The notes under the pieces: generated by a model
The model's database searches: none
The model's input: only the letters and a program-made list of their open reading frames with translations
What the model was told of the DNA's origin: nothing
Shown: positions 29,691 through 64,000 of the stretch, one piece after another
Numbering within the stretch: the stretch's first letter is position 1
Layout: each line of letters begins with the position of its first letter
Position numbers and translations under genes: made by a program
Source of the DNA: Candidatus Undivivens industriae
Lineage (GTDB): Bacteria > Omnitrophota > Gorgyraeia > Gygaellales > Profunditerraquicolaceae
Reading direction: 5' to 3'
Length of the DNA stretch: 64,000 bases
NCBI GenBank assembly: GCA_012514745.1
Contig: JAAYZR010000025.1
Coordinates: 18,930-82,929, forward strand

Positions 29691-29698
29691 ATTCGGGT

Positions 29699-48300: not shown

Positions 48301-51300
48301 TCATAAGTAATTTCCTGCACTCCCTCCGGGCCCAGCCAGGAAGACCAGGCCCCGGGAGAACCGTTGGAATCAGGCGCGGTGCGCATCTGAAAACGGATGT
48401 CGGTACCGGAAGGCAGCGTGGAGGTCCAGAAAAGGCTTTTCAGCCTGTCGGTGGTAAAAGTGGTGTCGTAAGCAGTGGAGACAAGCGTTTCCTGCGCTGG
48501 ATACTTGTTATAATTTATGGTAATACTATCCATCTGCGGCGGGCTGGCAAGGTCGTAGCAGAAGAACCTAAGCCTGTATTGCAGGTATTTGTCCTTGTCG
48601 TTCACCGAGCTGTATGAGGACAGGTCCCTACCCTTGGTTATCTTGCCGGCGTATCCCCAGGCAATGGCGTCGGATAAGGAACTGTTGTTTCCGGTGCGCA
48701 CGCGCACCTCGATCTGCCCCTGGGAGTTATCCTGCCAGGTAACGGCACCGTATCCGGCGTTGTTGCCGATCTCCTTTATCTCCGAGGTGTATTCCCCGGA
48801 AGAAAACAGCAGATACTTCATCAGCGAATAGTTGCCGTATCCGCTGGAGACATAGATGTAATCACCGCTGCCGGGATACATGGCGTTGGCCTGTCCGTCC
48901 ATGGAAAAAGGCATATCCTCGTTCTTCTCCCAGGTATTACTGCTGATGGAATACCTGTAAAAATACGGGGTGCCATAGGCAATATCGTAATTATAGGAAA
49001 CAAAAAGATAGATATAGTCGCCGAACCCGGGGCTGAACAGGCTCGCTCCGACGTTGAGCATCGGCAGAACGGTCAATGTTGACCAGGTGTTGGCCACCGT
49101 ATCGTATTTCCAGAAAGCGGTGGAGCCGTTGCCCGGAGTAACGTAGATGTAATCCCCGCTTCCCGGATATACCAGGTTTGCTCCCAGAGCACAGGCGGAA
49201 GGAGCTGAAGCCACTTCCTTCCAGTCGTTGTTGGCGATCGAATACCTCCATAAGGTAGTGGTGGAACCGCCGCGCAGGACGTAAATATAACCGTCTTTAT
49301 ACTCGATCGCCTGGCCGGTGGAGAAAGTGGCGGGCGGGGCGGCGAGGTTGGTCCAGAGGTCGGTGCTCACCGTGTATTTCCAGAAATCGGAATAACCGCG
49401 CCCCCTGGTAACGTAGATGTCGTCTCCTGTGCCCGGGTAAACGCTCTTGGAATCGTAATAAACGCCCGAAGGCGTGGATTGCAGGGTGTACCACACCGAG
49501 GAAGAAAGATTGTATTTATAACAGGAGGTGGAGTTGCCGCCGCGCAGATAGAATACGTCGTCCCCGGAAGGCATCGGGCATATCGAGGCCCCGTAACTGG
49601 CGCTGGCAGGATAGACTATGGTTTCGTCCCACCTGTTCTGGCTGATGGAATAACGGTTGAAATTAGTGCCCAAATCTCCGTGCCCGGTGCCGAGATAGAA
49701 ATAAATGATATCACCGCTGCCCGGGTAATAACCGCCCGGCATACCGGAGACGGAAAGCGGGGCCTCGGTAAGAATAGTCCAGGAGTTCTGGCTTAAGGAA
49801 TACCTGGCGAAATCCCTGCCCCCGCCCTTCAGGCAGTAGAGATAATCCCCCGCGCCCGGATACATCAGATAACAATAATCGGCGATAGACCAGGGGGCGT
49901 CGGAGAGATATCCCCAGGTATCGCTGTCAATACTGTATTTAGTGAATTTGACCGCCCCGGCCTGTTTAAGCATATAAATACCTTTATACGGGCCGTCGGG
50001 GATGAGACAGGTGCCGTTGCCCTCACTGGAGATCCCCTCCAGCATCGAGGTAAGCGCGACCCAGGAACCGCCGGACTCGTCGTCAGTGAACTTGAGAAAA
50101 GTGGTGGAGTTATAGTACCCGGGGCAGACGTAGATACTGCTTTCGTCGCTGACCATACGCGCGCCATAGGTGAACATATAGGGGCTGGAATTTATCTGCA
50201 TCCAGATCCCGGTCTCGGTGTTGTATTTCCAGAAATTCTTGTTCATATTCCCTTCCGAGACATAGATGTAATCCCCGCTGCCCGGATAAACCGCCCTGTG
50301 CCCTGCCCCGTGCACGATAAAGGGGAGTTTTATAAGATTCACCCATTTTTTTCGGCTGATAGAGTATTTCCAGACGTAGTTCGACCATCTGTTCGAGAAG
50401 AGATACATATAATCGCCTTTTACCACCAGACTACCGGAGACGTTCCTGCCCGGCCCGAAGTTATAATTCACCAGCGGATTGTTCCACTCTCCTGTGGCAA
50501 AAGTATAAGTCTGCACTCCTCCATATCCGTAGTAACCTACGTTATACAACTTTGTGTCGCTGGCGCACAGCTTGCCTTTTTGAAACACCGGAGGGAAAAA
50601 AAGCGTCTGCCAGGAATTGGTGGATATATTGTATTTAAAGAAAGCTCTGCGAAATTCCAGGTTGCATGCCCCTCCCTCGCTGTAATAAATGGCGTTCTCG
50701 GAAGATGAATAAACGAGTCTCCCCTGGCATTGCGACCTCCAGCAGTCGGGAAGGTTGGCCCTGCGCTCCCAGGTACCGGTAGAGAGCCTGTAACTCATGA
50801 ACTCCGTGCGGGCACTGGCGCGGAACATATATATGTAATCCGAACCGTCGTAAGCGGCGCAGACCCCGGTCTGAAAGGTCCCGTAGGGATTGGTGCTCAC
50901 CGTGGCCCAGGCGCGGCCGGTTTTATCGTACCTGTATAGATTCGCGGTATAGGTGACCGTGCCGCCGGTATTATTCCTGCCTCCCAGACAATACACGTAA
51001 TCATCCGTAACCACCAGCCTATTCCCCCCATAAGCCAAGTTCTGCGGCAAGGCCGGCAGCTGTTCCCAGCTCTGGGATGTGAGACTATAGCGGGAAAATC
51101 CATCCTGCTCATACCCCTGGAGGCAATATATATAATCATCTCCCTGTTTATACCCCAGACATCCTCCTCTGTGGATTCCTAAAGTATTGCCGGCGAAAGT
51201 AACATCCGAAAGCTTCTCCCATTGAAAGGAGACTGCGGTATTGCTGGAATTGACGGGATTGAAAGTAAGGAAATACCGATAGAAGTTTCTGGTGCCTTCG

Positions 51301-52700
51301 CCCCTGGTCAGATAAATGGCGTCCTGCGAAGCCACATACACGGCATCGCCGCCGTAGCGCAGTTCAAAAGCCGCCGCCGACTCTTCCCTCCACTTCTTTT
51401 GCGCGGGATAATACCGGTAAGTGGAGCTGTAGCTGTGGTTGCTCAACAGGCGCAGTTCGCTGCCGCTGCCGTCCGGGTCGTAAATATACATCCTGCCATA
51501 GATGTAGAACGGCAGAGCCGGCATCTCCACGTTTTTGGCGAGCGTGGATGAATAAGCCGAACTCTCCCAGGTGTCGGAGCCTATGGAATATCTGCCGAAC
51601 CACCTGCCGGCGCCGTACCAAGAGTAAAGGTAGTCCCCGGAACCGGGATAGACCACATCGGAATCCCAAGTCTGGCCGGTGGGACAGTTGGAAAGCGTGG
51701 TCCAGGCGTTGGAGCCGGCGGTATAATCGAATTTGGCGAAAGTGACGGAACCGCCGCCCGCGGTAGCGTAGATATAGGGAGAATCGGCTTTGGGATAACA
51801 AAGAGAAGCGCCGACACCCACGGTAAAAGGCGCGGATTCCACCGCCGACCAGGAACCGGTGGCGTTGATGTCCAAAGGCATCACGAACCTGTAGAAGACC
51901 GAAGTGTTGTTGCCGCAAAAGGCGTATGCCCGGCCGATGGAAGACACGATAGCGATCGTCCCGCCGTAACCTACGGTGGAAGGGACGTTGGCCTTGACAT
52001 GCCAGGTATTGGTGGATATTTTATAAGCGTAAAACTCCTTGCGATTACCTCCTATCAAGGCATATATTACGTCGCTGCCGTCGTAAGCCAAAGCGGCTCC
52101 CTGGCCTGTGCTCACGGGTATGCTTTCCATCAATTCCCATTTCTCTTCGTCAATGGACCAACGGGCAAACGCCTTATTGTCGTTGCCGCACTGCCATAAG
52201 GAATAGATGTAATTCCCGGCCTTGACCAGCGGTGATGTCCTGCCCATATAAGGAGAGAAAGGAAGACTGGACCATTGGCCGAGAGAACTGCAGAAAGGGT
52301 CCTGGTAAACCGTGTTGATCTCTACCCTGGCGGAGGCGCCGCTGCCTCCGACCACCACGTTGTTTTTCGTCCCCAGGGAAAAGTCCGTATCCGTGTCGTC
52401 TGTCAGTGCGAGGGTCAGCGGAGACATCACCAACTTGCCCGTAACGCTGGTGGTAAGATTGGAGCTTTTGGAGGAATATTTGGTCCAGTTGCTCTTGTTG
52501 GTAGGGTGTTTGGCTGTATCGGTGGAGGCTCCGCCTCTCCAGTCGCCCTGGCTGAAGTTATAGTATTCTTCACAGAAGGCGCCGGAACAGAGACAAAGAG
52601 AACAGACCAGGAGCGCCGCCAGCGGCATTATCATTATCAATATTCCGGGGTATCCCCTTTTCTTCATCTCTATCTTTCCTTCAGCGCCATACTTACGCAT
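39381..52700 (-). CDS. Giant (4,439 aa) secreted multi-domain protein: beta-propeller blades, DUF2341-like regions, tandem Ig-like modules, coiled-coil C-terminus
   Basis: Uninterrupted 13.3-kb ORF with a signal-like N-terminus. It has more than 15 Kelch-like blades marked by (V/M)YPGSGDY(I/L)Y. Two regions carry D-x-RF-x-D-x-DG...L-x-Y motifs. At least 12 tandem modules of about 85 aa have the form TSPNGGE-W--G----ITW---G-------YS-D-G-TW--I------G-Y-W-VP. The last 300 aa or so are coiled coil. Its ATG overlaps the upstream radical SAM stop (ATGCGTAA). Confidence 0.8.
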   Translation of the reverse strand: MRKYGAEGKIEMKKRGYPGILIMIMPLAALLVCSLCLCSGAFCEEYYNFSQGDWRGGASTDTAKHPTNKSNWTKYSSKSSNLTTSVTGKLVMSPLTLALTDDTDTDFSLGTKNNVVVGGSGASARVEINTVYQDPFCSSLGQWSSLPFSPYMGRTSPLVKAGNYIYSLWQCGNDNKAFARWSIDEEKWELMESIPVSTGQGAALAYDGSDVIYALIGGNRKEFYAYKISTNTWHVKANVPSTVGYGGTIAIVSSIGRAYAFCGNNTSVFYRFVMPLDINATGSWSAVESAPFTVGVGASLCYPKADSPYIYATAGGGSVTFAKFDYTAGSNAWTTLSNCPTGQTWDSDVVYPGSGDYLYSWYGAGRWFGRYSIGSDTWESSAYSSTLAKNVEMPALPFYIYGRMYIYDPDGSGSELRLLSNHSYSSTYRYYPAQKKWREESAAAFELRYGGDAVYVASQDAIYLTRGEGTRNFYRYFLTFNPVNSSNTAVSFQWEKLSDVTFAGNTLGIHRGGCLGYKQGDDYIYCLQGYEQDGFSRYSLTSQSWEQLPALPQNLAYGGNRLVVTDDYVYCLGGRNNTGGTVTYTANLYRYDKTGRAWATVSTNPYGTFQTGVCAAYDGSDYIYMFRASARTEFMSYRLSTGTWERRANLPDCWRSQCQGRLVYSSSENAIYYSEGGACNLEFRRAFFKYNISTNSWQTLFFPPVFQKGKLCASDTKLYNVGYYGYGGVQTYTFATGEWNNPLVNYNFGPGRNVSGSLVVKGDYMYLFSNRWSNYVWKYSISRKKWVNLIKLPFIVHGAGHRAVYPGSGDYIYVSEGNMNKNFWKYNTETGIWMQINSSPYMFTYGARMVSDESSIYVCPGYYNSTTFLKFTDDESGGSWVALTSMLEGISSEGNGTCLIPDGPYKGIYMLKQAGAVKFTKYSIDSDTWGYLSDAPWSIADYCYLMYPGAGDYLYCLKGGGRDFARYSLSQNSWTILTEAPLSVSGMPGGYYPGSGDIIYFYLGTGHGDLGTNFNRYSISQNRWDETIVYPASASYGASICPMPSGDDVFYLRGGNSTSCYKYNLSSSVWYTLQSTPSGVYYDSKSVYPGTGDDIYVTRGRGYSDFWKYTVSTDLWTNLAAPPATFSTGQAIEYKDGYIYVLRGGSTTTLWRYSIANNDWKEVASAPSACALGANLVYPGSGDYIYVTPGNGSTAFWKYDTVANTWSTLTVLPMLNVGASLFSPGFGDYIYLFVSYNYDIAYGTPYFYRYSISSNTWEKNEDMPFSMDGQANAMYPGSGDYIYVSSGYGNYSLMKYLLFSSGEYTSEIKEIGNNAGYGAVTWQDNSQGQIEVRVRTGNNSSLSDAIAWGYAGKITKGRDLSSYSSVNDKDKYLQYRLRFFCYDLASPPQMDSITINYNKYPAQETLVSTAYDTTFTTDRLKSLFWTSTLPSGTDIRFQMRTAPDSNGSPGAWSSWLGPEGVQEITYDFENAYEYANTSEVVLSAGTAKLSKVLADYLYRQKIVVDNTSGSSSYANTTVKVEIPSADIDFWDHVADDGSDIRFTDSDGKTPLKYRVMGFSKDKKSASCWVTVPSIPQGTAKEIYLLYGKWSATSESDASLAESMIGTDFYALTFTFLDIISTDAPNRVYIEKLNAEGQVVASTFLDFTSVGETQRYTDTALTCYHVYSQKPITLFASSIEPSSTSDDDYYTASGNDLWLWCPAYNYDGDVIITAYNDDTQIKITDYGKGDDTGTLTLDAGNFWFGWNRVDSRGEVWHIEATKPVTVQAGLIGHGDSSEQMRSPDMREYYFYCPDANVTFTAYEDNTNIVFDNLDGVTGDYSGTLNKGQSYRHIPNSGSAMTLRARLSADKPLCAVADDMNGGKGQIYQSADTLVSVGKDYYINTGGARYLKLIDYEEGANNITVTGDISPSPTTLTLSARGGMATLDPGSTWRNLHLTGTKKFAVYAYSSYGEAITPVLKPTEFNHLISTYLVAKEEPADGPALAGWLYKETIKIDNTLNTQELTDFQVAVDVDKNHRDFWLHCLADGGDVRFVDGDGSALLNYYAESFSYTGKEARFWVKIPVLPYTEQKIIYMYYGKADAASLSDGDGVFEFFDDFDAGLDKWDSQYCNLTTISSIFGMDSSPFNLSAGASTVSTTVAIPSGIVAGRTYDWYWELRWPNGALVEAQSIAQPFTLYHDLLRMTAGPFMEKNVAPGQVITTIGGTFTNNYSIAMNGLRFRFTLTDVDTGASFQEIDSTTFNVPVGTSTISNISITMPSGLTAGHLYSWSWAVLDQNNNQLFSSSAAPAALFNIACKFQLSSGPVLPSSVTGGTSASISGTFDNAAEVSLNSLFWRFTLTDTTQGGRSVAKVAHNGYLQAKSNVSPNYDITTEVTWQTANKTGRHFIGICDPNAKVSTGINNSNYKAGYDVLISSNGYYYAESGNGYTTWNSIRTPYTFAMWNKDKMSWKPHDTLNGQTGQVIFELSTGDKLTYNAGYVAGPGLAIKPTIRSSSDAIYVDKIMVYKKAVVKPYVGFVFTETANPTGMEVYYTTNPVIQPVLGVFYDNNLTAFQEVNTIPLDTDIKYQVSCDGYNWHWWDGTAWKEVSGGFSQTNEAPEINNNLAAFQTKFPSGEFFFRAFLNSADGVGTPLLDTVSVFTTSEPTYYITPSGSLVNFLNSDIVNDRWVQYKAVLNSYGQETPVLQNVGFSYLDAVLTITSPNGGESLPIGTTVLITWTSQGIDGADNQVKIEYSTDGGSTWMLIVDNLANNGAYEWQVANNPSPNALIRVTSKKYSAIRDTSDAAFGIMGLILNSPNGGNQWEIGSTHNITWSSYGTVSNNLKIECSLDGGTTWLYPPVADQRINNGLYTWNIPNRESYISSVCLMRITDMNNTNITDRSNTVFSIVPKPSMTITSPVGGEVWKAGSAKDITWDNRGNVNPLVNVYYSVDSGSNWTLLQSSVSNTGTYACTVPNVLSSRVRIRIAETAVPPGRDTQAQMETASEGDFTITLPTIKLSSPNGSEKWVRGDTREIAWSSDGAIGENALRIEYSVDEEENWAAVSEDEADDGSYSWVIPQGAVGGNVKIRITDTSRPEVFDESDAYFEVLDKPIIVLVQPNGGEKTTIGAPYEVKWFTIGDALDDQFLTVYFSPDSGEHYEVISDQRPNNGSYFWIPPEVEISTARIKIKCDDSENFPWVEDSSDADFTIQKPQLTLTWPNGGESLYAAGTYSITWESVGSIGLNAIKLEYSVNGGSTWQMISGGLANSGSYSWKTADSPTSELKIRVSDDSQPGVKGESKNNNSIIAPSLTLTSPNGGELWVVGIDYPVTWTSVGDHNSISNNLVLQYSVNNGSTWKSIAGGIPNDGTYIWHIPNDISDNCKVRIYDYSRTATQDTSDAVFKISAPSITITTPNGGEAWPYGTNHEILWNIIGQVSDDVTITYSVNGGTTWLPVYSGPTNNHSYAWNVPENISSTCKIKIKDNEPPYIEDTTDTVFSIAYPIITVTRPNGGEILVVTDNENITWSTEGTVSNSLKIEYSRDNFVLDINEIADNVANTGVYIWRVPEVLSTVLRVRITDNSVPQITDKSNAGFSILPFPVVTIDSPNGGERWRIGTKHNITWHDNGGPLSNNLVLQYSVDGGSNWKPISGGVPNSGSYEWTIPEDYSVNAVVRITDNQRATTVDHSDAAFIIDYPKITITAPVSATSWAVGDPAVITWVSEGAVSDNLLLQYSTDNFITLETIGVGEANDGSYNWSVPDEPTNNMKIRIVDGNRPATIATSEAFNVLQYPQIAVTSPNGGEEYVVGDSVNITWTSKGLSINPLTIVYSSDNFATTHTIKTGAPNTGSYNWVIPDDTICVNTLKIKIYDPTRTVISDASNNNFRIRGGFNITYPAANIDWAVNEPRSVTWQTRGQIPNVKLDYSVDAGNTWTTIVTSTPNTGVYTWAPPDYHGQKALLKVSDPTDDTVYSVSPSFNIIYYRITWMVKDYDNMDNLQNLSVRDTWWSDPSATIICPVTQEYPYGHYTTFWSKEGYIERSTDWIADGNKSITLLLENSISAQIEWHVLLSTAYNSATDTISASSWLERRGKIVGLNDIDRADLTSATLSVYDGETLIKTLTSGTPDGNGAFWFTWADTGLTSGKTYFVKSTVVFRGSTYNSGASIDVTTELTAKGQTAILQNLQTQTATIQSQVTQDIPQKITQAKEEIREDTARILTATETDIPEKIEEERRQQETDIRSEILNRENSVRSGTDLVVRYRTYPGVQPTVDFYDPNNVQRVSKGVMTEVSGGIYEYTITVSSGWGRGDFTVVCSESTYGSLDAMIISVIRSDIEQIAGQVSAVLGTTSGLNNFSKVADTLSSQFAVIESALGKISKDLVDQVKEVAGSATDINSVYMQLVNIGRELKKVSTEQNVSLEKLLEVNEEKKSDMTYLKNKTQELKAVMDINQKMIDNIANKPVTQTWFEFK

Positions 52701-53562
52701 GAAAATACTCCGAACTCCCCGCCGGTTTCTTCTCTTCCAGGCCGGGGATACCGCAGGCGTCGGCCCTGCACTGCCTGCACTTCCTGAACTGGTTTATGCA
52801 AAGCTCACACGCGCTCCTGGCCTCCTGCAGCTCCACGCAGGTGGGAGGCCGCTTATCCTTCATCTGCGAGACCGGGATAAGCGGGATAATATTCATTATG
52901 TGCGCGCCCAGCGCCGAATACTCCTTGGCTATCGCAAAAACCTGCTGCTTGTTGATCTCCGGGATAAGCACGGTATTGACCTTCACCGTGAAGCCGGCCT
53001 TGACGGCTTTTCCGACCCCGTCCTTCTGCCGCTCTATGAGAAGCGCGGCGCCTTCTTCTCCTGTATATGTCTTACCTTTAAAGTTGACGAACCCGTATAT
53101 CTGCGCGCCTATTGCGGCATCGAGGGTATTGACGGTGACCGTGACCGTCCCCACCTTAAGTTCCTTCAATACGGCGATCTTATCCGCAAGCAGCAGCCCG
53201 TTGGTGGAGAGGCACTTCATCAGATCCGGATGGTGTTTCTCCATCAGCCTGAAAGTCTCGAAGGTCTCCTCGTTGGCCAGGGACTCTCCCGGCCCGGCTA
53301 TGCCGGCAACGGTTATACAGTATTTCCTGCGCGCCTCGCTCACTTTTTCCAGCGCCTCGGCCGGTGAAATTATCTTCTCCGACACCCCGGGCCTGTCTTC
53401 AGTCAGATTAAGAGAGCGCAGACAGTATTTACAGCCGATATTGCAGTCGCGCGCCACCGGAAGATGCACCCTGCCGTAGCGGGAATGCGCCGCCTCCGAG
53501 AAACAGGGGTGCCTGTCGAGAGAAAAGGTCTTTTTACGCAGGAACCTGCCGAGAATATTCAT
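52693..53562 (-). CDS. NifB-like radical SAM protein (radical SAM core only)
   Basis: RHPCFSEAAHSRYGRVHLPVARDCNIGCKYCLRSLNLTEDRPGVSE resembles the NifB N-terminus with a CxxxCxxC cluster motif. 289 aa with no NifX-like C-domain. The stop overlaps the giant gene start. Confidence 0.7.
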   Translation of the reverse strand: MNILGRFLRKKTFSLDRHPCFSEAAHSRYGRVHLPVARDCNIGCKYCLRSLNLTEDRPGVSEKIISPAEALEKVSEARRKYCITVAGIAGPGESLANEETFETFRLMEKHHPDLMKCLSTNGLLLADKIAVLKELKVGTVTVTVNTLDAAIGAQIYGFVNFKGKTYTGEEGAALLIERQKDGVGKAVKAGFTVKVNTVLIPEINKQQVFAIAKEYSALGAHIMNIIPLIPVSQMKDKRPPTCVELQEARSACELCINQFRKCRQCRADACGIPGLEEKKPAGSSEYFHA

Positions 53563-54137
53563 CTGACGGCCCCTCCGGATTTATATATGTAAAGCGCTCC
53601 CGTCAACACAAGTATGACCCCTCCCGCTCTTTTTATGACGTGCCTGTGCGGCGCCACCCTCCCCAGCAGACCGGCTGAAACAAATCCCAGAGAAAGATAG
53701 ACCGAAGAGCTTAAGGCGTAAGCCAGCGAAACAAGCATGCCCTGGAACAGCTTTGTGCCCAGTATCAAAGGCACAAGATAAATGTATTTTCTGCCGGGAT
53801 TCAGCATACCCCGCATAAGTCCCATCCCGAACCCCACCCTGCCCTGCAGAGAGCCGCCGTTTTTTTCCCGGTGATTCCCGACGGACAAAAGGGAATATAT
53901 CCCCATTGCGGCGACCGCTATGCCGAACAGCAGATTCACGGCCCTTTTATCTATAGTCAAAGAACGCCCCAGCAAAGCGACTATCAGGCCGAAAATGAGC
54001 AGACCGATCAGCCTGCCGAGAAGGAATTTCAGGCCCGCGTACCTGTCCGATAGAGTGAGCCCGAAAGCCAGGAATGGGCAGATGAACAGCCCTTCCGCGG
54101 ACAACCCTATCACCAGCGCCGTTAATATCCTCTCCAT
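53559..54137 (-). CDS. Polytopic membrane protein (about 6 TM), unknown function
   Basis: 192 aa, hydrophobic throughout. Overlaps the downstream radical SAM gene by 4 nt. Confidence 0.5.
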   Translation of the reverse strand: MERILTALVIGLSAEGLFICPFLAFGLTLSDRYAGLKFLLGRLIGLLIFGLIVALLGRSLTIDKRAVNLLFGIAVAAMGIYSLLSVGNHREKNGGSLQGRVGFGMGLMRGMLNPGRKYIYLVPLILGTKLFQGMLVSLAYALSSSVYLSLGFVSAGLLGRVAPHRHVIKRAGGVILVLTGALYIYKSGGAVR

Positions 54138-54155
54138 ACGCTCTGCCCGCCCTTT

Positions 54156-54695
54156 TCAATGGCACTTAAAACTCTCCACGATACCCCGGAATTCGCTTTT
54201 AGTGACCGTTCCCAGCAGATCCAGAAAAAGGAATTGCCTGCCGGTCTCCGGACAACTGAAGCGGCAAAGCAGTATCTCCTCTTCGGAAGACTTCCCGCAG
54301 GGGCGCGTAACGTTCACGCTCCCTTTCGAGAAAGATACCGCGTGCCCGTTTACCCGGGTCTCTTTATCATCCTCACGTTCTCCGGAAGAAAGCCTATACC
54401 TTTCCGCGGGGAAAAAAGACATTACCTCCTGTCTCTGTTTTCCCCAGGAAACGGCGAATAAACGCTCGAACATCCCCCGCTCTGTCGTGCTTACGAAGAT
54501 CACCGTCCCTTTCTCTTCGCCGCCTTCCACCGTTTCCGGAGGAAGGAACGCGGGGACTTCAAAACTTATGTTGCTGTCCTTCTTCCGATCTATCTGTCTC
54601 TTGTCGCCGGCTCCCGGAGCGTCCTGCGCGGCTAAAAGCAGAAAAACCAGGGACAAAAAGAACGTCCATGAGCTTCTGTATCCGGGGATTCTCAC
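54156..54695 (-). CDS. Secreted hypothetical protein
   Basis: Signal peptide WTFFLSLVFLLLAAQDAPGA. The GTG start overlaps the stop of the upstream HUH gene (GTGA). Confidence 0.45.
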   Translation of the reverse strand: MRIPGYRSSWTFFLSLVFLLLAAQDAPGAGDKRQIDRKKDSNISFEVPAFLPPETVEGGEEKGTVIFVSTTERGMFERLFAVSWGKQRQEVMSFFPAERYRLSSGEREDDKETRVNGHAVSFSKGSVNVTRPCGKSSEEEILLCRFSCPETGRQFLFLDLLGTVTKSEFRGIVESFKCH

Positions 54696-55678
54696 TTCTT
54701 CCCGCCTTTTGCCTTTTCTCTTTCTTCCGTGAGTTCTTTCACCTTCTGTTTCTCTATATCAAGGCGCTTCTGCATCGCCTGATAGGATACCAGGTCGGCG
54801 CGGTACAATTCCTGCAGGTCCTTCTTGATGAATTCCCTGTCCTTCATCAACCTTTCGCTGTACTCCATATCCTTACGGCGAGAGATGTTTTTAAGCCTGT
54901 TTTTCAGATTGACCTGCACGATCAGCAGCGAAACGGCGATAACACAGAAAACCGGGATAAGCATCTTCGCCCGGCGCAGGGAGACCTCGTTTTCGCCGTG
55001 CGCTCCGGCCGCGGCGGAAGTTTTCTCGCTCTCGACTTCCGCTCTCACTTTAGCCACGAAATCATCGCTGCCGAGGATGTTCTTCCTGACCAGCTCTTTA
55101 CCGAGCGCTTCCATCTCCGGAGCCGAAAGAAACCCCATATATTCCGGATACGTCAAAGGCGCGTCTGCGGCCTGCGACAAAAGCGCTTCCATTTCCCTGC
55201 GCTCCGCCTGCATATCGAAAAGACTGCCCTGCCCTTGCCCGGCGAATGCCCGATAACTGCTGAATTCATAGGCCCCGGGATCATCGGCAAACCCCAGTTT
55301 GCAAGGGTTCTTGTGCATATACGCGCTTACCCCGGGTAAATAACCGCTTTTTTCCAGAATGGTGATCTTCGCCCTTTCCTGGAGAAGATGCCCTTTCCTG
55401 CCGTAACGGGAATTGAAATATTTGGTGTAATTGGAGTTCAAGGCGTGCATTATCCGGGAAACCGTGCATCCCTCCCTGGGCTCGATAAGCAGATGCACGT
55501 GGTTCGGAAGCAGAACAAAAGAAAACACCCTGCAGCCGAACTGTTCTTTATATTTTCTTAATAATTCAATGTATGTCCGAAAGTCCCGGCTGTCTTTGAA
55601 AATGACTTCTTCATTATCTCCGCGGGAGGTAACGTAATAAACGGAGCCCTCGATGTAAATGCGTGGTATCTTCTCCAT
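54692..55678 (-). CDS. HUH/Y1 transposase-like (IS200/RAYT-like) domain protein with C-terminal TM + coiled-coil extension
   Basis: The N-terminal 150 aa carry YYVTSRG, HuH motif LLPNHVHLL and tyrosine motif AYMHKNPCKLGFADDPGAYEFSSYRAF. A TM segment LIPVFCVIAVSLLIVQ and a K/E-rich coiled coil follow. GAGGAGTG SD precedes the chosen ATG(55678). Confidence 0.6.
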   Translation of the reverse strand: MEKIPRIYIEGSVYYVTSRGDNEEVIFKDSRDFRTYIELLRKYKEQFGCRVFSFVLLPNHVHLLIEPREGCTVSRIMHALNSNYTKYFNSRYGRKGHLLQERAKITILEKSGYLPGVSAYMHKNPCKLGFADDPGAYEFSSYRAFAGQGQGSLFDMQAERREMEALLSQAADAPLTYPEYMGFLSAPEMEALGKELVRKNILGSDDFVAKVRAEVESEKTSAAAGAHGENEVSLRRAKMLIPVFCVIAVSLLIVQVNLKNRLKNISRRKDMEYSERLMKDREFIKKDLQELYRADLVSYQAMQKRLDIEKQKVKELTEEREKAKGGKK

Positions 55679-55716
55679 TTTCACTCCTCTATGCGTGGCA
55701 CGCCGCCGCAAAACAT

Positions 55717-55743
55717 AAAAAAAACCGGGCAGTCCTGCCCGGG
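55717..55743 (-). terminator. Intrinsic terminator (candidate riboswitch expression platform)
   Basis: Minus-strand CCCGGGCAGGACUGCCCGG followed by U8. Lies about 30 nt after the aptamer-like segment and 27 nt upstream of the RBS/ATG at 55678. Confidence 0.7.
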
Positions 55744-55774
55744 ATCGTCAAATCAAGCATATCCCAAGTCTTCG

Positions 55775-55862
55775 GCAGTCTGCCGTTCCTTATAAACAGC
55801 CAAGGAAGCATGACTTTGCGCCCTCCGGTTACCCGGAGTTTGCCTTTTCGGATCGAGATACA
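55775..55862 (-). ncRNA. c-di-GMP-I (GEMM)-like riboswitch aptamer
   Basis: Minus strand: AAAAGGCAAAC-UCCGGGUAACCGGAG-GGCGCAAAGUC-AUGCUUCCUUGGCUGUUUAUAAGGAAC-GGCAGAC. This parallels the Vibrio cholerae Vc2 aptamer, whose sequence is given here from memory: GGGCAAACC, a P2 hairpin with GNRA tetraloop, GACGCAAAGCC, a P3 hairpin, then GGUAGC. Confidence 0.55.
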
Positions 55863-55876
55863 ATCTACCTGTATAA

Positions 55877-55904
55877 AGTATACCACAAATAGCGCTTTTA
55901 TCAA
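55877..55904 (-). promoter_or_regulatory. Extended -10 sigma70-like promoter driving the riboswitch leader
   Basis: Minus strand TTGATA-16 nt-TATACT, with TG immediately upstream of the -10 hexamer (TGGTATACT). The predicted TSS is near 55870. Confidence 0.45.
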
Positions 55905-57036: not shown

Positions 57037-57387
57037 TCATTTTACCGCAGCCGCCGCAGGCCCCTTCAAGGCGGGTGCGGACGGCTTGTTTTTCTTTTTT
57101 TTCGCTGCGGCTTCCGCTTCAAGCTCCGACCGGATCTCCCGAAAAAGATCCTTTTCTCTTTCCAGCTCTTTGGCTTTTCTGCCGTATTCTTCCGTGAAGG
57201 CCCGGTGTTCCCGCGAGAGGTCTTTTACGAAAGCGTCCCTCGCCTCTTTCAGCTTCGCGGCATGTTTCGCTTTCGCGATACCGTCTATATTACCGATCTT
57301 CACCGCCGTGATGATGCAGGAAAAGAGCAGATACGCAAAACAGGCGGCTGTTAGAACGGCAATAATTTTCATCTTATGTATCCGCAT
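57037..57387 (-). CDS. Small membrane-anchored coiled-coil protein
   Basis: 116 aa with an N-terminal TM and a K/E/A-rich tail. Confidence 0.4.
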   Translation of the reverse strand: MRIHKMKIIAVLTAACFAYLLFSCIITAVKIGNIDGIAKAKHAAKLKEARDAFVKDLSREHRAFTEEYGRKAKELEREKDLFREIRSELEAEAAAKKKKNKPSAPALKGPAAAAVK

Positions 57388-57556: not shown

Positions 57557-58249
57557 TTATTTGAGTCTTTCGATCGCCGCGCGGATATCCCCGGCTTCGG
57601 AGGCGTCCGGTTTCAACTCCAGGTACTTACTATAGTGCTCCACCGCCTTCTCCGGGTCCTGTCTGAAGGCGTCGTAAACAACGGCAAGATTGTAATGGGC
57701 GTCGGCGTTGGACGGATCCAATTCAAGAGAACGCCGGTAGGCCTCGACCGCCTCGTCATAATATCCGGCGCCGGTATAAGCCACCCCGAGATTATAACTA
57801 TAAACGGAGCGTTCCTGTTTTATATGTTTCTGCAAAAGTAACAAGCCCTGCTGAGCTTTTTGCGCGGTATTGACGTAATTGCCGCTTTTCTTCAACTCCC
57901 CCCTGGTCTCCTCCAGCTGGCTCTTCAACAACCGCAGGTCGTTCTCCTTTTCGCTTATGCTCTGCTGGAACGCTTTCAGGTTTTTCTGCAGTGTTTCGTT
58001 GTCGTTCTGAAGTTTCGTGCTCAACGACAGGTAGGACACCGAGTCGCTCTGCAGGCGTTCGTTTTCTTTCTCTACCTTCTCTCTCTCGGCCTGCATCACG
58101 GCCAATTCTTCCTGCGCCTTCTGCATCATTTTATTCAGCTGGCCGAGCTGGCCGGTAAGATACACGTTCTTCGAATAAATACCCACCCCGATTCCCAGCG
58201 ATATTGCCAGCACCATACCCGCGGCGGCGATCAACAGTATTTTTTTCAT
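57557..58249 (-). CDS. TPR-repeat protein with N-terminal TM and coiled coil
   Basis: Signal/TM at the N-terminus, a long Q/E/L-rich coiled coil and C-terminal TPRs (AYNLGVAYTGAGYYDEAVEAYRRSLELDP...). Confidence 0.6.
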   Translation of the reverse strand: MKKILLIAAAGMVLAISLGIGVGIYSKNVYLTGQLGQLNKMMQKAQEELAVMQAEREKVEKENERLQSDSVSYLSLSTKLQNDNETLQKNLKAFQQSISEKENDLRLLKSQLEETRGELKKSGNYVNTAQKAQQGLLLLQKHIKQERSVYSYNLGVAYTGAGYYDEAVEAYRRSLELDPSNADAHYNLAVVYDAFRQDPEKAVEHYSKYLELKPDASEAGDIRAAIERLK

Positions 58250-58818
58250 GGATAAGACGTCCCGCTATACTCCAGCATCCGGATAAGATACTTCACATCT
58301 TCGGCGTCTCTGGCCAGAGGGGCAAGCGTGAGATAACGCTTTAAATAAGCCGCCGCCTTTTTGTTGTCGTTCCGCTGGTGTTTATACAACAGACCCAGGT
58401 CGTAACAGACGGCTGCGTCATCGTGGTCAAACGATAACGCTTTCTCGAAAGCGTTTATCGCCTGCTCGAACTGTTTTTCTTTCAGGTACCCCTGCCCGAG
58501 CTCTTTATACAAAATGGCCTCTTCCGCTGCCGCCGCTGCGGCGGTGTCTTTTTCAGCAGAAACGGTTGTCTTAACCTTCTTTTCGCTTTTCCCCGCGGCT
58601 GCCTTGCGCCCAAGCCGCTGTTTAAGCCCCGGATCAACCTTCCCGGACTTTGAGAGAGCCGCGTTCTGCGCGTGCAGTTCCGCCACCAAGCCGGCGTTCT
58701 CCCGCTGCAGCTCTTCTATTATCCTGCGCAGTTGTTTTTCGCTATCCGAAGCGGCAAAAAGACTGCTTTGAGAAAGCAAAATACCGGCCGCCAGGACGCT
58801 CAATATTTTTCCCGACAT
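58246..58818 (-). CDS. Secreted TPR-repeat protein
   Basis: The start is set at MSGKILSVLAAGILL (signal peptide). Coiled coil plus TPRs. Overlaps the downstream TPR gene by 4 nt. Confidence 0.55.
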   Translation of the reverse strand: MSGKILSVLAAGILLSQSSLFAASDSEKQLRRIIEELQRENAGLVAELHAQNAALSKSGKVDPGLKQRLGRKAAAGKSEKKVKTTVSAEKDTAAAAAAEEAILYKELGQGYLKEKQFEQAINAFEKALSFDHDDAAVCYDLGLLYKHQRNDNKKAAAYLKRYLTLAPLARDAEDVKYLIRMLEYSGTSYP

Positions 58819-58849
58819 TCCCACCTCCACAGCGAAACAAAGCCGCTCT

Positions 58850-58874
58850 AATTCCGGGGACACAATACTTAATT
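58850..58874. repeat. REP-like repeat copy
   Basis: AATTCCGGGGACACAATACTTAATT lies about 32 nt upstream of the TPR gene start and about 65 nt downstream of the secretin stop. Confidence 0.6.
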
Positions 58875-58940: not shown

Positions 58941-60839
58941 TCAATACTTCTTCAACCCCTTCAATTGTAACTCCGGCCGGTTCTCCGCCGGCCCCCCGGA
59001 CGCGGGCCTGACGACTTTCTCTCCGCCGGGTGAGGATTTTTCATCCCGGCCCTCCGAAGGTGTTATTTTCTGCATCCTGCGGTTCAATATATCTTCCTTC
59101 ATACTGTCTGTAAGGACCTCGGGCGAGACCCATTTCTCCGGTTCCATCCCGGACGCCATAGCCTCTCCCGTGACTATGTGGGGCGTGAGGAAGATGACCA
59201 ATTCTGTCTTCTTGTGCAGCGAAGCCTTGCCGCCGAAGAGTCCGCCGATCACCGGTATCTTAGACAACAAAGGCACTCCGGTTATGTCGTTTCTCTTATC
59301 GTCTTTCATCAATCCGGCGATCATGATCATCGAACCGTCCTTTACCTTGACAACGGTCTCGGCTTCTGAAGTCTCGACAATAGGCACGATACTTCCCAGA
59401 CCGGTCTTAAGCGTCTCCCGGACCGAACTGACTTCCGGCTTAATCTTCAAGGTGACAAAACCGTCCTGGTTTATGGTCGGGGAAACGTTAAGCTTCACCC
59501 CCACGTCTATAAACTGGATGCTCTCGGAAGTAACGGTGGTGGTGTCTCCCTGGCTCAATGTCTGGGTCACGTAAGCCTCTCTCGCCCCGACCATTACCTT
59601 TGCTTCCTGGTTATTGAGAGCGGTAATGCGGGGGCTGGAAAGTATCTTGGTCTCGCCGTAAGTCTGCAGCAGCTGCAAAGTGGCGGTATAATCGTCGTCA
59701 TTCAGCACGCCCATGGTCATCTTCAGGTTATCCGCGGTCAACAAAGGAGACGGGGTAAAAGAAGGCGAGGCGGGAAAAGTCCCCGCGAACTTCAAGGAAT
59801 CGCTGAACACATCTTCCCAGTTGATGCCGCGCTGGTATTCGTCCTTCAGCGTGATCTGGACTATCTCCGCTTCGATAAATACCTGGCGGCTGGATTCGTC
59901 GAACGCCTTGACCATGCGCCGGATCTTCTTCATTTTATCCGGGAGGTCCGAAACGACGAGCTTGCTGGACCTCTCATCCACGTATACCTCTCCGGCGCCT
60001 CCGGTTATCACGTTCGACAGCTGCGTCTTTATGTCCGCGGCCTTTGCGTACTTGAGATCGAAGACCTCAGTTTGCAGCGGCTGGTCAAGGTCCTCGACGG
60101 TCTTCTCCATGAGATCCAATTTCTCGGGAATATCTATCAAAAGCAGGGTGCCGGAGGTCTCGTCGGCGATGATCTTGCCTATATCCGACTTGACCAGGCT
60201 CAACGCGTTGAAGACGTTGGAAGGTTTGGCGTATTTAAGCTTTACGCTCCTAAAACCGCGTTTTTCGTTGAACCTTCTGCCGTAGAGCTTCTCATACTCG
60301 GCGGAGGTCATTATATTGACTATATTCCCTTTTCTATCGCAGGCGAGGTCCTGGCTCATCAGAATGACATCCAGGGCGTCATCGAAGGTAAGTGAATTCA
60401 TGAAGATATTCACCCTGCCGGCGACGCTTTTACTCGGTACGATGGTGAGGTTCATCTTCATGGAGAGGATACGGAACAATTCCACGATATCTATCCCTTT
60501 CAGATCAAGGGATATCCTTTCCCCGGAGGTCTTGACCCCGTCCATCTTGGCCGCTGCATCCGCCGTTCCGGCGCCCTGCGGCGCAGTATCGGCTGGGGCT
60601 GGCCCGGGTAAAGATTGCCCGGGGTCCACAGGCGCTTGTCCGTTCTGCGGGCGGATGTCCGCCGAGTCTATCGGTGTGTCTCCGGGCGAACCGGCCGGCG
60701 GAGGAGACTCGGGAACTCCCCCGGATTGATCTGCGGGAGGATCCGCGGAAAAAACCGGGAAGCAGACAGCCGTCAAAAGAAAAGAAAACACGGCTATCCT
60801 TAACCGCCTCGACAATCTGCATCCTGGATTGATAGGCAT
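58941..60839 (-). CDS. gspD: Secretin (GspD/PilQ family)
   Basis: Signal peptide, a Pro-rich low-complexity linker, N-domains and a C-terminal secretin domain (VIFLTPHIVTGEA). Confidence 0.85.
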   Translation of the reverse strand: MPINPGCRLSRRLRIAVFSFLLTAVCFPVFSADPPADQSGGVPESPPPAGSPGDTPIDSADIRPQNGQAPVDPGQSLPGPAPADTAPQGAGTADAAAKMDGVKTSGERISLDLKGIDIVELFRILSMKMNLTIVPSKSVAGRVNIFMNSLTFDDALDVILMSQDLACDRKGNIVNIMTSAEYEKLYGRRFNEKRGFRSVKLKYAKPSNVFNALSLVKSDIGKIIADETSGTLLLIDIPEKLDLMEKTVEDLDQPLQTEVFDLKYAKAADIKTQLSNVITGGAGEVYVDERSSKLVVSDLPDKMKKIRRMVKAFDESSRQVFIEAEIVQITLKDEYQRGINWEDVFSDSLKFAGTFPASPSFTPSPLLTADNLKMTMGVLNDDDYTATLQLLQTYGETKILSSPRITALNNQEAKVMVGAREAYVTQTLSQGDTTTVTSESIQFIDVGVKLNVSPTINQDGFVTLKIKPEVSSVRETLKTGLGSIVPIVETSEAETVVKVKDGSMIMIAGLMKDDKRNDITGVPLLSKIPVIGGLFGGKASLHKKTELVIFLTPHIVTGEAMASGMEPEKWVSPEVLTDSMKEDILNRRMQKITPSEGRDEKSSPGGEKVVRPASGGPAENRPELQLKGLKKY

Positions 60840-60873: not shown

Positions 60874-61491
60874 TCATCGGAGTTCCCATTCTCTGCCGTC
60901 CTTGCTTAATACCACCTTATCCACGTATATCTTCTTGACCTTAAGTTCGTTGACGGAATCTCCGTCATTGAGCAAATAGGTCTTGGAATTCTTGGTATCT
61001 TCTACCATCGCCTGAGGTTTCTCGGACCACAGGATACCGACCAGCTTCAAAGTGCTGACCGCCTGGGCCGTTTCCGCGGAAAGCAGATTCTCGGCCTTGG
61101 CAGGCTCTACGGAAAATATATTGTGCTTACCAGCCGAGCCAAGCAGATCTTTGAATGCCGGCGCTTTTTCCGCCGCGGCCACGGAATGAACATCCGCCGT
61201 TCCGCGGGAAAAGGCCTTCTTGAGCCTCACCGATGAATCGCTTGAAACGGATACGTAATCGTACAACAGGAACAAAGTAACCAACACCGCGGAGACAACG
61301 GACAGCTGGACCGCCGTTCTCAAAGTGAAACCTCCGGCTGGGAACTGCGAAAAACGGAAGGCAGCGCTATCCGCGTTTTCTTTGCCTCCGGCATCCGCCA
61401 GGGGACGTCTGACGGCGCCGGACGCCTGATTGCCGGGATTCTCTATTATCTTCAGCAGCCTTTCTTCCGGGGTCAGATTCTTATTTTCCAT
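60874..61491 (-). CDS. Bitopic GspC/PilP-like protein
   Basis: N-terminal cytoplasmic segment, one TM and a C-terminal beta-domain (TYLLNDGDSVNELKVKKIYVDKVVLSKDGREWEL) resembling PilP/GspC HR. Confidence 0.45.
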   Translation of the reverse strand: MENKNLTPEERLLKIIENPGNQASGAVRRPLADAGGKENADSAAFRFSQFPAGGFTLRTAVQLSVVSAVLVTLFLLYDYVSVSSDSSVRLKKAFSRGTADVHSVAAAEKAPAFKDLLGSAGKHNIFSVEPAKAENLLSAETAQAVSTLKLVGILWSEKPQAMVEDTKNSKTYLLNDGDSVNELKVKKIYVDKVVLSKDGREWELR

Positions 61492-61497
61492 ATAATA

Positions 61498-62343
61498 TCA
61501 TATATTTGCCGTGGCCGCCGTAAGTTTTACATCATTATTTATGATATCCCAGATGACCCTCGCGTCAACCGAAACCCGGTTGGACATAATCAGCGCCTTG
61601 AGCGCGTTGTGACAAAGCATTGATATCCTGCGCGGGTACCCTTTAGTATATCTGTGTATTTCGGCTATCGCGTCGTTTGTGAACAGACTTCCTCTTGAAT
61701 CGAACCCGGCAACTTTCAACCGGTAATTGATCATTTCTTTTGTCTCCCTCTCATCCAGCGGATTAAGCATATATTTCAGGCTTATCCTGTCCCAGAGATT
61801 GGGCATCTGGTTGAGTTTCGGCAGCACCTCCAGCTGAGATAACAGAACCAGCTGCAGGAGCTTATATTCGTTGGTCTCGTAATTGAGCAGCACGCGCAGC
61901 ACTTCCAGAGACGCCTGGTTAAGTTTCTGGCATTCATCCACCACCAGAACTACCGTTTTATTTTCCTGCACCCCTTTCATAAAGAGATAATCTTTCAATA
62001 TCTCCTTATAATCCAGGGTCGTGGGAGAAGGTTTCGCCGTCTCTATCTTGAAAGTCCTCACCAGCGACTCCAGAAAAATATGCTCGTTGTCGTACGTCGG
62101 ATCCAGTATAAGATGGAAGATAATGTCTTCCCTCTCCTTAAGCATTTGAAGCAATCTGCGGGAGAGCGTGGTCTTCCCCACTCCCACGTCCCCGAGTATA
62201 AGGCTCAAGCCGCGTTTAAGACGGATCTCCACCAGCAGGCGCATCAACGCCGCGCGGTGTTCCTGCGATTCATAGAAGAACTCCGGATCCGGGCTGGTCG
62301 AAAACGGCTCTTTCTCCAACCCGAGGAGCCGATAATAACTCAT
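61498..62343 (-). CDS. gspA: ExeA/GspA-like AAA ATPase
   Basis: Walker A GDVGVGKTT, Walker B VLVVDE and AAA_16/ExeA architecture. 281 aa. Confidence 0.7.
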   Translation of the reverse strand: MSYYRLLGLEKEPFSTSPDPEFFYESQEHRAALMRLLVEIRLKRGLSLILGDVGVGKTTLSRRLLQMLKEREDIIFHLILDPTYDNEHIFLESLVRTFKIETAKPSPTTLDYKEILKDYLFMKGVQENKTVVLVVDECQKLNQASLEVLRVLLNYETNEYKLLQLVLLSQLEVLPKLNQMPNLWDRISLKYMLNPLDERETKEMINYRLKVAGFDSRGSLFTNDAIAEIHRYTKGYPRRISMLCHNALKALIMSNRVSVDARVIWDIINNDVKLTAATANI

Positions 62344-62468
62344 ATTCCCCCTTCCGATAGTGCGCTGTTGAATAAGTTCTTTGAACAGCGCACTGAGTCC
62401 GCCAACGTTTCAGTGGCGAGACGATCTAATTTCGATTCTCGACTATGAGAAACTTATGTAACAATGCA
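62344..62468. repeat. MITE-like element copy with terminal 13-bp-stem hairpin
   Basis: 62400-62468 is about 80% identical to 18061-18129 and begins at the TAG stop of the MerR-like gene (TAG-TGCATTGTTACA). Hairpin TAGTGCGCTGTTGAA/TTGAACAGCGCACT (62355-62392) lies 4 nt upstream of the gspA RBS. Confidence 0.55.
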
Positions 62469-63937: not shown

Positions 63938-64000
63938 AATTCCGGGGACACAATACTTAATTCGGCAACGGCTGCGGTCGCCAACAGATTTCAACCTGTC
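63938..64000. repeat. REP-like repeat plus start of a third MITE-like module (truncated by window end)
   Basis: AATTCCGGGGACACAATACTTAATT at 63938-63962 lies 6 nt upstream of the ATG at 63932. The following CGGCAACGGCTGCGGTCGCCAACAGATTTCAAC parallels 18046-18080 and 62380-62410. Confidence 0.55.

Follow-up and report, generated by a model that had tools for sequence, protein, structure and literature searches.

The window analysed here, a stretch of 64,000 nucleotides (nt) from Candidatus Undivivens industriae (Omnitrophota; contig JAAYZR010000025.1), contains one Y1 (HUH) transposase-like gene, whose product carries a transmembrane (TM) helix and a coiled-coil tail and is referred to below as the Y1-TM protein. 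Sequence comparison shows that in Omnitrophota this gene is inherited at the head of an operon whose last gene encodes a giant surface protein. Because it is kept as the riboswitch-controlled first gene in such operons, it appears to be a fixed part of an export system and not a mobile element. We regard the Y1-TM protein as probably, if by no means certainly, a domesticated, non-mobile, membrane-tethered nucleic-acid-binding Y1 protein resembling TnpA_Y1 subclass 2.1 and docked to a secretin complex.

The Y1-TM open reading frame (ORF) occupies positions 54692-55678 on the reverse strand, as do all genes and leader elements described below, and encodes 328 amino acids (aa) from an ATG preceded by a GAGGAG Shine-Dalgarno sequence. 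An in-frame TTG at 55711 lies directly 3' of the riboswitch terminator and is unlikely to be the start. The Y1/HUH catalytic core comprises aa 1-150 (55229-55678), as shown by Pfam, NCBIfam, alignment and structure prediction. Its four signatures named in the preliminary description of this DNA (YYVTSRG, HVHLL, AYMHKNP and FSSYRAF) were all found, and the Pfam comparison proposed there gave a match of PF01797 (Y1_Tnp) to aa 26-123 (43.9 bits with a cut-off of 23, E 3e-11). The NCBIfam model REP_Tyr_transpos (NF047646) matched aa 5-140 with 66.6 bits, below its equivalog cut-off of 80, and transpos_IS200 (NF033573) gave 20.3 bits, below its cut-off of 55. The HUH motif corresponds to H60-V-H62 (55493-55501) and the catalytic tyrosine to Y120 of Y-MHK-NP (55319-55321), after which a serine motif is located (Y137/S140/S141, YxYSS). 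An AlphaFold2 (AF2) model built from a 57-sequence alignment (pLDDT 85.7) predicts a beta/alpha core (aa 12-127), a helical domain (aa 157-227) and a single long helix (aa 232-324). With this model, Foldseek returned TnpA_REP of E. coli (4ER8) as the top match (E 2e-8, TM-score 0.72), followed by the TnpA structures of IS200, ISDra2 and IS608 (2F4F, 2XQC and 2VJV); at the sequence level 4ER8 was the sole PDB match. Its motifs and closest homologues place the protein in the Y1/HUH superfamily, nearest to TnpA_Y1 subclass 2.1.

Downstream of the core lies a helical linker domain (aa 157-227, 54998-55210) with the invariant residues G203 and F207 (ILGSxxF motif), which is common to soluble relatives that combine Y1 with a helix-turn-helix (HTH) domain. 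Next come a single TM helix (aa 238-258, 54905-54967; Kyte-Doolittle value 2.49 over 19 aa) and a coiled-coil tail that is predicted to be extracytoplasmic (aa 259-328, 54695-54904) and holds the conserved motif YRADxVSYxAMxKRLEIEKxKVKELE. The TM segment is the one strong hydrophobic segment of a protein without a signal peptide, and such a segment is present in all 33 TM-type loci. The TM and coiled-coil extension first described for this gene was thus borne out by its hydrophobicity and by the AF2 helix that encloses it, and it recurred in 57 aligned full-length homologues and in about 45 representatives at 50% identity, showing that the ORF is not split by a frameshift. That a sequencing or assembly artefact has fused a normal Y1 gene to a membrane-protein gene is therefore a negligible prospect: nothing in its support was found, an uninterrupted ORF of this kind was found in dozens of independent assemblies (38-95% identity), AF2 gives one confident continuous model, and the homology of the tail to a free-standing neighbour (see below) shows the source of the fused part. 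On the strength of these many independent full-length homologues, the artefact was rejected.

A word-indexed search with the Y1-TM protein yielded about 60 clusters (86-100% query coverage, 35-95% identity), several of them labelled Candidatus Omnitrophota, and an exhaustive profile search over 1.84 billion representatives gave 2758 proteins at E <= 1e-30. Among the best 150 of these 2758 matches, about 45 span the whole profile (subfamily A, 290-350 aa). More than 100 cover positions 1-220/290 only, and many of these are 375-760 aa long, indicating that the same Y1 and linker segment is joined to a different C-terminus. The closest relatives of the window protein come from Omnitrophota metagenome-assembled genomes (MAGs; loci L009 and L010, 91-92% identity). 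A scan of one genome per species gave 80 loci with Y1 homologues, in which the TM-bearing proteins were all from Omnitrophota-type MAGs and formed two subfamilies: subfamily A has a coiled-coil tail with YRADxVSY, and in subfamily B (375-420 aa) the TM helix is combined with a different C-terminal domain, about 110 aa long. Both types can be carried by a single MAG, with one subfamily in L014 and the other in L027.

The nearest relatives that lack a TM helix are proteins of 300-330 aa with Y1 and Bac_DnaA_C/HTH_23 domains. They align with the Y1-TM protein to about aa 215-225 and their HTH starts at about aa 232. Since the TM helix starts where the HTH of these relatives starts, a membrane anchor has taken the place of the DNA-targeting HTH, and Pfam gave no HTH match in the Y1-TM protein. 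Two other homologues, L019 and L020 (the latter from a candidate division WOR-3 MAG), are 42-44% identical over aa 1-217, with no TM helix or aptamer detected; the ORF of L019 is complete at 259 aa and that of L020 is cut by the contig end. These two could be intermediates between soluble and anchored Y1 forms.

Profile comparison indicates that the Y1 tail is a copy of a small TM/coiled-coil gene of the neighbouring secretin/TPR cluster. This cluster encodes a TM and coiled-coil protein of 116 aa (57037-57387), a free-standing paralogue of the tail, which hhalign aligned with aa 240-328 of the Y1-TM protein (99.0%, E 8e-18, 91 aligned columns). It also encodes a 230-aa protein (57557-58249) that has an N-terminal TM helix, a coiled coil with a D-x-V-S-Y motif, and TPR repeats. 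The N-terminal TM/coiled-coil part of this protein matched aa 231-311 (94.4%, E 9e-8), and it shares with the Y1 tail the motif D-x-V-S-Y-x-[AS]-[LM]-x-x-[KR]-L, located 37-44 aa past the TM helix. BLASTP found nothing between these two sequences, so that the likeness was detected by profile-profile comparison alone. For this reason a negative control was run, and another coiled-coil TPR protein of the same cluster gave 0.8% with the Y1 tail.

The C-terminal domain of subfamily B had no Pfam match and recurs in 12 neighbouring proteins of 165-250 aa (E 1e-13 to 3e-32), all of which begin with cleavable signal peptides. The presence of this domain in signal-peptide proteins supports an N-in/C-out topology for the Y1-TM proteins, and it suggests that the Y1 protein may dock to the envelope machinery via a periplasmic module common to its neighbours. 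The consensus of the domain, which is predicted to be extracytoplasmic, reads W.I.L...D.L.F..GKF.S...GF..SNYS...WETMQ...SWRGE...M.G..SLR...PQDFSF.S. One to three adjacent signal-peptide proteins also contain it in L016 (444-998 and 1958-2452), L024 (4980-5663), L030 (5060-5686) and L036 (3499-5620).

To describe the gene context, five divergent homologous loci (L001, L002, L004, L006 and L007; 40-81% identity) were compared. Their gene order is MerR-type HTH protein, AAA_22 ATPase, T2SSC-like protein, secretin, one or two TPR proteins and a small ORF, and it continues after a gap of 250-490 nt with the Y1-TM gene, 0-4 small genes and a protein of 4100-5100 aa (Kelch, DUF2341, LamG). The head of this order, MerR-AAA_22-T2SSC, was seen in the loci with enough upstream sequence (L001, L006 and L007). 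The order is the same in the window, where the cluster consists of the MerR-type HTH protein (62469-62696), the AAA_22 ATPase (61498-62343), the T2SSC-like protein (60874-61491), a PilQ/GspD/MshL-like secretin (58941-60839), a TPR-205 protein (58246-58863) and the 230-aa and 116-aa proteins; an ortholog of the latter is located just upstream of the riboswitch in all five loci. The window operon itself consists of five genes that overlap or nearly abut, and its last gene (39381-52700) encodes a giant signal-peptide protein of 4439 aa with Kelch-type beta-propellers, DUF2341 and Ig-like repeats. In all 26 loci with at least 5 kb of downstream sequence, the Y1-TM gene is followed by an ORF of at least 1045 aa that runs off the locus end. 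Homologues of the window giant gene follow Y1 in L002, L004, L006, L007, L012, L014 and L017; the giant genes of subfamily A are in the best cases 29-34% identical to it over about 1550 aa, and those of subfamily B belong to a different family. No inverted repeats flanking the Y1-TM gene were found in the window. Such fixed synteny across loci is what an accessory gene kept by vertical inheritance would show, and not what a mobile element would. The preliminary description had placed the gene first in a riboswitch-controlled operon ahead of surface-protein genes, and every locus examined indeed showed the riboswitch, the Y1-TM gene and the giant gene in this order.

The leader of the operon begins with a sigma-70-type promoter, TTGATA-16-TATACT with an extended -10 TG (TGgTATACT; 55877-55904, 10 of 12 matches), and the pattern TTGAnA...TGnTATACT is kept in the aligned leaders of five other loci. 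It is followed by an aptamer of the c-di-GMP-I-GGC variant riboswitch (55768-55855), which was detected both by Rfam (RF03167 at 55770-55853, 60.4 bits with a gathering score of 59, E 2e-12) and by our own covariance model R1, built from six aptamers (98.6 bits). Rfam also found the RF03167 aptamer in the gap before the Y1-TM gene in all five divergent loci. The covariance model placed an aptamer on the same strand, 100-250 nt ahead of the Y1-TM gene, in 31 of 32 assessable TM-type loci and in none of about 48 loci whose Y1 gene has no TM helix. The expression platform is an intrinsic terminator, CCGGGCAG-GA-CUGCCCGG followed by U8 (55717-55742, stem 55742-55725), 26 nt downstream of the aptamer, and its stem and U-run are kept in all aligned leaders. 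The c-di-GMP-like switch originally proposed ahead of the Y1 gene is accordingly supported by a hit above the gathering score, by the terminator and by the promoter directly upstream. Folding gave a candidate antiterminator, UUGGGAU/AUCCCGG, and no firm ON/OFF answer. This arrangement of promoter, riboswitch and terminator ahead of the operon implies that a cyclic-dinucleotide-type signal sets the joint making of the Y1 protein and the giant protein; the signal sensed by the GGC-variant aptamer thus appears, on this sequence evidence, to gate transcription of both genes together.

Between the terminator and the ribosome-binding site we found a short leader motif, GTGCCACGCAT (55691-55701), of which a second near-identical copy, ATACCACGCAT (55659-55669), is located inside codons 4-7 (I-P-R-I) of the Y1-TM ORF. 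Its general form is an A-rich tract with GTGCCA(C/G)GCA after the terminator. The motif was present in 31 of 33 loci, in one or two copies at -20 to -110 from the start codon, and the 33 leaders gave 54 matches, compared with a background of 0.19 per kb (both strands). Subfamily-A leaders carry GTGCCACGCA once, 20 to 45 nt ahead of the start codon (in L014 about 110 nt ahead of it), and the same 9-mer occurs again in codons 4-6 of the ORF (xTG CCA CGC A). As the subfamily-A P5-R6 codons are CCA CGC, the 5' end of the ORF repeats the leader motif; in L007 two tandem copies encode MPRVPR. In six subfamily-A loci an extra copy precedes the promoter. The subfamily-B form is the palindrome GTGCCAGGCAC, which typically occurs twice at a spacing of 31-32 nt. 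Which variant a leader has follows the Y1 subfamily, CAC going with A and CAG with B, and this holds even for L014 and L027, the two loci of a single MAG. Two loci carry flipped copies of the motif and these, together with the copies upstream of the promoter, favour recognition at the DNA level over an RNA hairpin. The motif is able to fold into a small hairpin (GTGC-CAS-GCAC). As REPtrons and TIRtrons have their cognate repeat 25-70 nt before the Y1 start codon, we infer by analogy that the leader motif is the best candidate target of the Y1 domain. Two other roles were rejected by eye: a sigma-54 promoter, in view of misfitting spacing and orientation, and a CsrA site, as subfamily A is without GGA. 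The leader copy also opens a mini-ORF (GTG/ATG CCA CGC = MPR...). L029 is the sole TM-type locus with upstream sequence that has neither the aptamer nor the leader motif, and its HUH is also gone (KIM); it may be a decaying or rewired copy.

The catalytic residues are retained to different degrees in the two subfamilies. In subfamily A (n = 57) they are nearly always kept (H60 in 56, H62 in 57, Y120 in 56 and N/H124 in 55 proteins), whereas 9 of the 22 members of subfamily B (L016, L024, L025, L029, L030, L034, L036, P0063 and P0064) have lost at least one of them, with QLN, RLS, KIM or RIS in place of HUH and F or H in place of the tyrosine. The riboswitch, leader motif and giant gene are nevertheless kept in eight of these nine (not in L029). 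Since the context is mostly retained when HUH or Tyr is lost, the function common to the clade does not depend on HUH chemistry. Other positions are more constant: P5, R6, T17, H122, G203 and F207 are invariant in both subfamilies, and Y137, S140 and S141 are kept in 52-56 of 57 subfamily-A and 18-21 of 22 subfamily-B proteins. The earlier suggestion of a domesticated Y1 nuclease with a new role therefore holds in part. Domestication is supported by the single syntenic position, the lack of flanking repeats and the exchange of the HTH for an anchor; nuclease activity is unproven, and the catalytic residues are dispensable in the sister subfamily.

The window also contains a 25-bp repeat, TTCCGGGGACACAATACTTAATT, in six copies where none was expected: 7950-7972(+), 8051-8073(-), 18024-18046(+), 27760-27782(-), 58852-58874(+) and 63940-63962(+). 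It includes GGGGACAC, fitting GGGGWSAS, the consensus of the inverted repeats that flank subclass-2.1/TIRYT Y1 genes (PMC3733652, PMC6006769); this degenerate 8-mer showed no enrichment in the window, with 19 occurrences where 18 are expected. Within 3 kb of the Y1-TM gene there is no copy of the 25-bp repeat, the nearest being that at 58852, in line with the initial remark that no REP copies flank the gene. L009 and L010 have the repeat at the syntenic position, and L036 has two inverted copies of it ahead of the Y1-TM promoter; it was absent from the orthologous Y1-TM loci of other genera, and most Y1-TM loci do not have it. Its exact 19-mer core, GGGGACACAATACTTAATT, was found in at least 120 metagenome contigs. 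Among the matches listed, 11 contigs carry a Y1 gene, and in 10 of these the repeat abuts a Y1 gene different from the Y1-TM gene. Inverted copies of the core bracket such a gene in L109, L117, L151 and L203 as TIR(+)-Y1-TIR(-), where TIR is a terminal inverted repeat; the start codon follows the upstream copy at 25-70 nt, and the downstream copy overlaps the stop codon. Five of the six repeat-associated Y1 genes scanned encode soluble Y1_Tnp proteins of 218-228 aa, the sixth (L205) one of 282 aa, and the soluble proteins are 26-32% identical to the window Y1-TM protein. The 25-bp REP-like repeat is thus, as judged from its sequence context, the terminal inverted repeat of a widespread TIRtron. 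Because its core abuts or brackets a soluble Y1 gene, the repeat family has its own canonical enzyme and does not need the Y1-TM protein.

These data bear on four readings of the Y1-TM protein. The idea put forward at the outset, that the 25-bp REP-like family (AATTCCGGGGACACAATACTTAATT) and the miniature inverted-repeat transposable elements (MITEs) derived from it are transposed or mobilised by this protein, draws on the fit of GGGGACAC to the TIRYT consensus, on the copy at 58852 in the same cluster and on the inverted pair in L036. With a soluble Y1 gene beside the repeat, most Y1-TM loci without it and GGGGWSAS not enriched in the window, we consider this reading highly improbable and have abandoned it. 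It is unlikely, if much less remote, that the protein is an active Y1 enzyme, which from the membrane would nick or rejoin single-stranded DNA at a specific site in or near its own operon, for example the leader motif when exposed in transcription or replication. The enzyme would thereby become covalently joined to the chromosome through a 5'-phosphotyrosine, or it would bring about a programmed change in the DNA that affects giant-gene expression. The conservation of H60, H62, Y120 and N/H124 in 55-57 of 57 subfamily-A proteins is consistent with this, as are the fold, which matches the catalytically active TnpA_REP and IS608 TnpA, and the ability of the leader motif to form a hairpin. In addition, Quentin et al. 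(2018, PMC6006769) argue that all TnpA_Y1 subclasses retaining HUH and Y process single-stranded DNA. However, HUH and/or Tyr were lost in 9 of 22 subfamily-B proteins with the riboswitch, motif and giant gene kept in all but one, and there is no inverted partner site downstream of the Y1-TM gene; rearranged alleles, for which no search was made, were not seen either. The window protein may still be an active enzyme, to judge from its sequence.

At the other extreme, the Y1 domain could be a decayed relic that acts as a scaffold or folding unit only, with the protein serving as a membrane/coiled-coil subunit of the secretin apparatus and having no nucleic-acid role. The loss of catalytic residues in part of subfamily B agrees with this, as does the existence of the tail as a separate gene in the same cluster. 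We nevertheless think it improbable, given that the Y1 core and linker are under strong purifying selection in both subfamilies (T17, H122, G203 and F207 being invariant), that the catalytic set is intact in nearly all of subfamily A, and that the conserved leader motif co-varies with the Y1 subfamily. The reading that we prefer, a domesticated and membrane-tethered nucleic-acid-binding Y1 protein, has its own difficulties. HUH, Tyr and Asn are almost perfectly conserved in subfamily A (56-57 of 57), which speaks for a catalytic role and would have no explanation if the protein were nothing but a tether or regulator. The link between the Y1 domain and the leader motif is inferred only, and the cluster's MerR-type protein, or some factor encoded elsewhere, could bind the motif instead; the motif could also be a relic of duplications of the ORF 5' end, repeating the MPR codons, and its hairpin form is weakened by pair counts showing wobble changes only and zero compensatory pairs. 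With regard to docking, the topology of the Y1-TM proteins is a prediction, coiled-coil profile matches can be inflated by composition, and hhalign gave only 45% between the 116-aa protein and the 230-aa TPR protein.

If the protein is tethered and binds nucleic acid as we favour, the following mechanism may be envisaged. The Y1 domain would be located in the cytoplasm and the coiled-coil tail in the periplasm, where the tail would pair with its paralogues in the 116-aa protein and the 230-aa TPR protein and so dock the Y1 domain beneath the secretin machine. The docked domain would then bind a nucleic-acid target, the best candidate being the GTGCCA(C/G)GCA leader motif, and through this binding either the locus, while being transcribed, or its transcript would be kept where export takes place, or else expression of the operon would respond, in a ToxR-like manner, to the state of the envelope complex. 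Binding, and not DNA cleavage, would be the common requirement, and the intact active site of subfamily A may still nick or join single-stranded DNA. In this tentative and rather doubtful model, the Y1 domain is the sequence-specific cytoplasmic head of a trans-envelope complex (secretin, TPR protein and coiled-coil trio) that either holds the operon or nascent transcript at the export machine or reports the state of the machine. If true, the Y1-TM protein would be the first HUH protein to be anchored in a membrane, and a domesticated transposase would have been put to the biogenesis of giant proteins under the control of a cyclic-dinucleotide riboswitch.

The remaining three genes of the operon, tightly packed between the Y1-TM gene and the giant gene (52693-54695), encode a 179-aa signal-peptide protein whose start overlaps the Y1 stop (54156-54695), a DsbD_2-like membrane protein (53559-54137) and a radical SAM protein (52693-53562). 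The N-terminus of the last one (HPCFSEAAH...CNIGCKYC) resembles that of NifB. This trio was found in the window, L001 and L007 only; its absence from L002, L004 and L006 marks these genes as accessory. Pfam and NCBIfam searches of the neighbouring genes gave no match for the 179-aa, 309-aa and 116-aa proteins. Several other repeats are present in the window. A 61-nt repeat (84% identity) occurs at 18075-18135, 30 nt from the 25-bp copy at 18024-18046, and at 62414-62474, adjoining the MerR-type gene of the secretin cluster, and it may be part of a longer MITE. Further away, a pair of direct repeats of 89 nt with 100% identity (29240-29328 and 29475-29563, the first beginning AAATTCCGGGGGAACC) is interleaved within about 450 nt with a 70-nt pair of 97% identity (29330-29399 and 29622-29691).

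Domesticated Y1/HUH proteins (RAYTs and their relatives) are widespread, and their host functions are mostly obscure. Among them the Y1-TM family is an unusually constrained case. Its genomic partner (a giant surface-protein gene with a secretin cluster) and its regulator (a variant cyclic-dinucleotide riboswitch) are fixed, its leader contains a candidate cis target, and its sister group includes naturally occurring "catalytically dead" members. It is a near-universal and hitherto unrecognised component of the Omnitrophota giant-gene loci, which have been proposed to mediate prey attachment, and it provides the orphan-like c-di-GMP-I-GGC riboswitch variant with a coherent gene context. The sources that name Y1-TM proteins call them "transposase", a label that can mislead analyses scoring giant-gene neighbourhoods as rich in mobile DNA.

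The known group closest to the Y1-TM proteins is TnpA_Y1 subclass 2.1 (Quentin et al. 2018, PMC6006769), equated there with TIRYT (Di Nocera et al. 2013, PMC3733652), in whose members a Y1 core with a serine-motif extension is followed by a C-terminal Bac_DnaA_C/HTH_23 domain. Both groups share the class-2 core (HUH, Y-x3-NP), the YxYSS serine motif, the linker to about aa 225, a length of about 320 aa and the lack of REP association. The Y1-TM proteins differ in having a TM helix with a coiled coil (A) or a domain of about 110 aa (B) instead of the HTH, in lacking flanking GGGGWSAS inverted repeats, in their fixed position between riboswitch and giant gene and, in our sample, in their confinement to Omnitrophota-type MAGs; the text of PMC6006769 contains no mention of a membrane or transmembrane segment. 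The class-1 TnpA proteins of IS200/IS605 have Y-x3-Q in a core-only protein of about 130-155 aa, in contrast to the class-2 signature Y-MHK-NP and 328 aa of the Y1-TM protein. Moreover, IS200/IS605 elements are multi-copy, with subterminal hairpins and often tnpB, whereas the one Y1 gene of the window shows conserved synteny across genera. E. coli TnpA_REP/RAYT is the best structural match (4ER8) and is likewise a domesticated Y1 gene with one syntenic position per locus, but RAYTs are soluble, about 165 aa long and flanked by REP/REPIN, whereas the Y1-TM protein is anchored, without flanking repeats and below the equivalog cut-off. The TIRtron Y1 genes (L109, L117, L151 and L203) share the Y1_Tnp domain at 27-32% identity and have their cognate repeat at the same pre-start position as the Y1-TM leader motif; unlike the Y1-TM proteins, theirs are soluble, and the genes are bracketed by inverted GGGGACACAATACTTAATT and dispersed over many contigs.

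With regard to the surrounding locus, West-Roberts et al. (2023, bioRxiv 10.1101/2023.11.21.568195) described giant-gene loci of Omnitrophota that contain clusters resembling type II/IV secretion systems and c-di-GMP-related genes; they report that pilZ genes are located downstream and that some of the giant proteins have GGDEF domains. A text search of their paper gave no mention of transposase, secretin or riboswitch, and searches of the two Omnitrophota giant-gene papers gave no riboswitch and nothing on the Y1-TM family. The loci described here differ in that their proteins, of 4-5 thousand aa, are not of the largest class of that paper, and they resemble those of West-Roberts et al. in the giant gene preceded by a secretin-type cluster and in the c-di-GMP link. 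As for the protein itself, the ToxR/CadC/TcpP regulators offer a working analogy and not family membership, as the Y1-TM head has the Y1/HUH fold and no OmpR-type winged helix. With the topology predicted for the Y1-TM protein from its single TM helix and its lack of a signal peptide, the two designs would be alike in an N-in nucleic-acid-binding domain, one TM helix and a periplasmic C-terminal module, and in being encoded beside their presumed targets.

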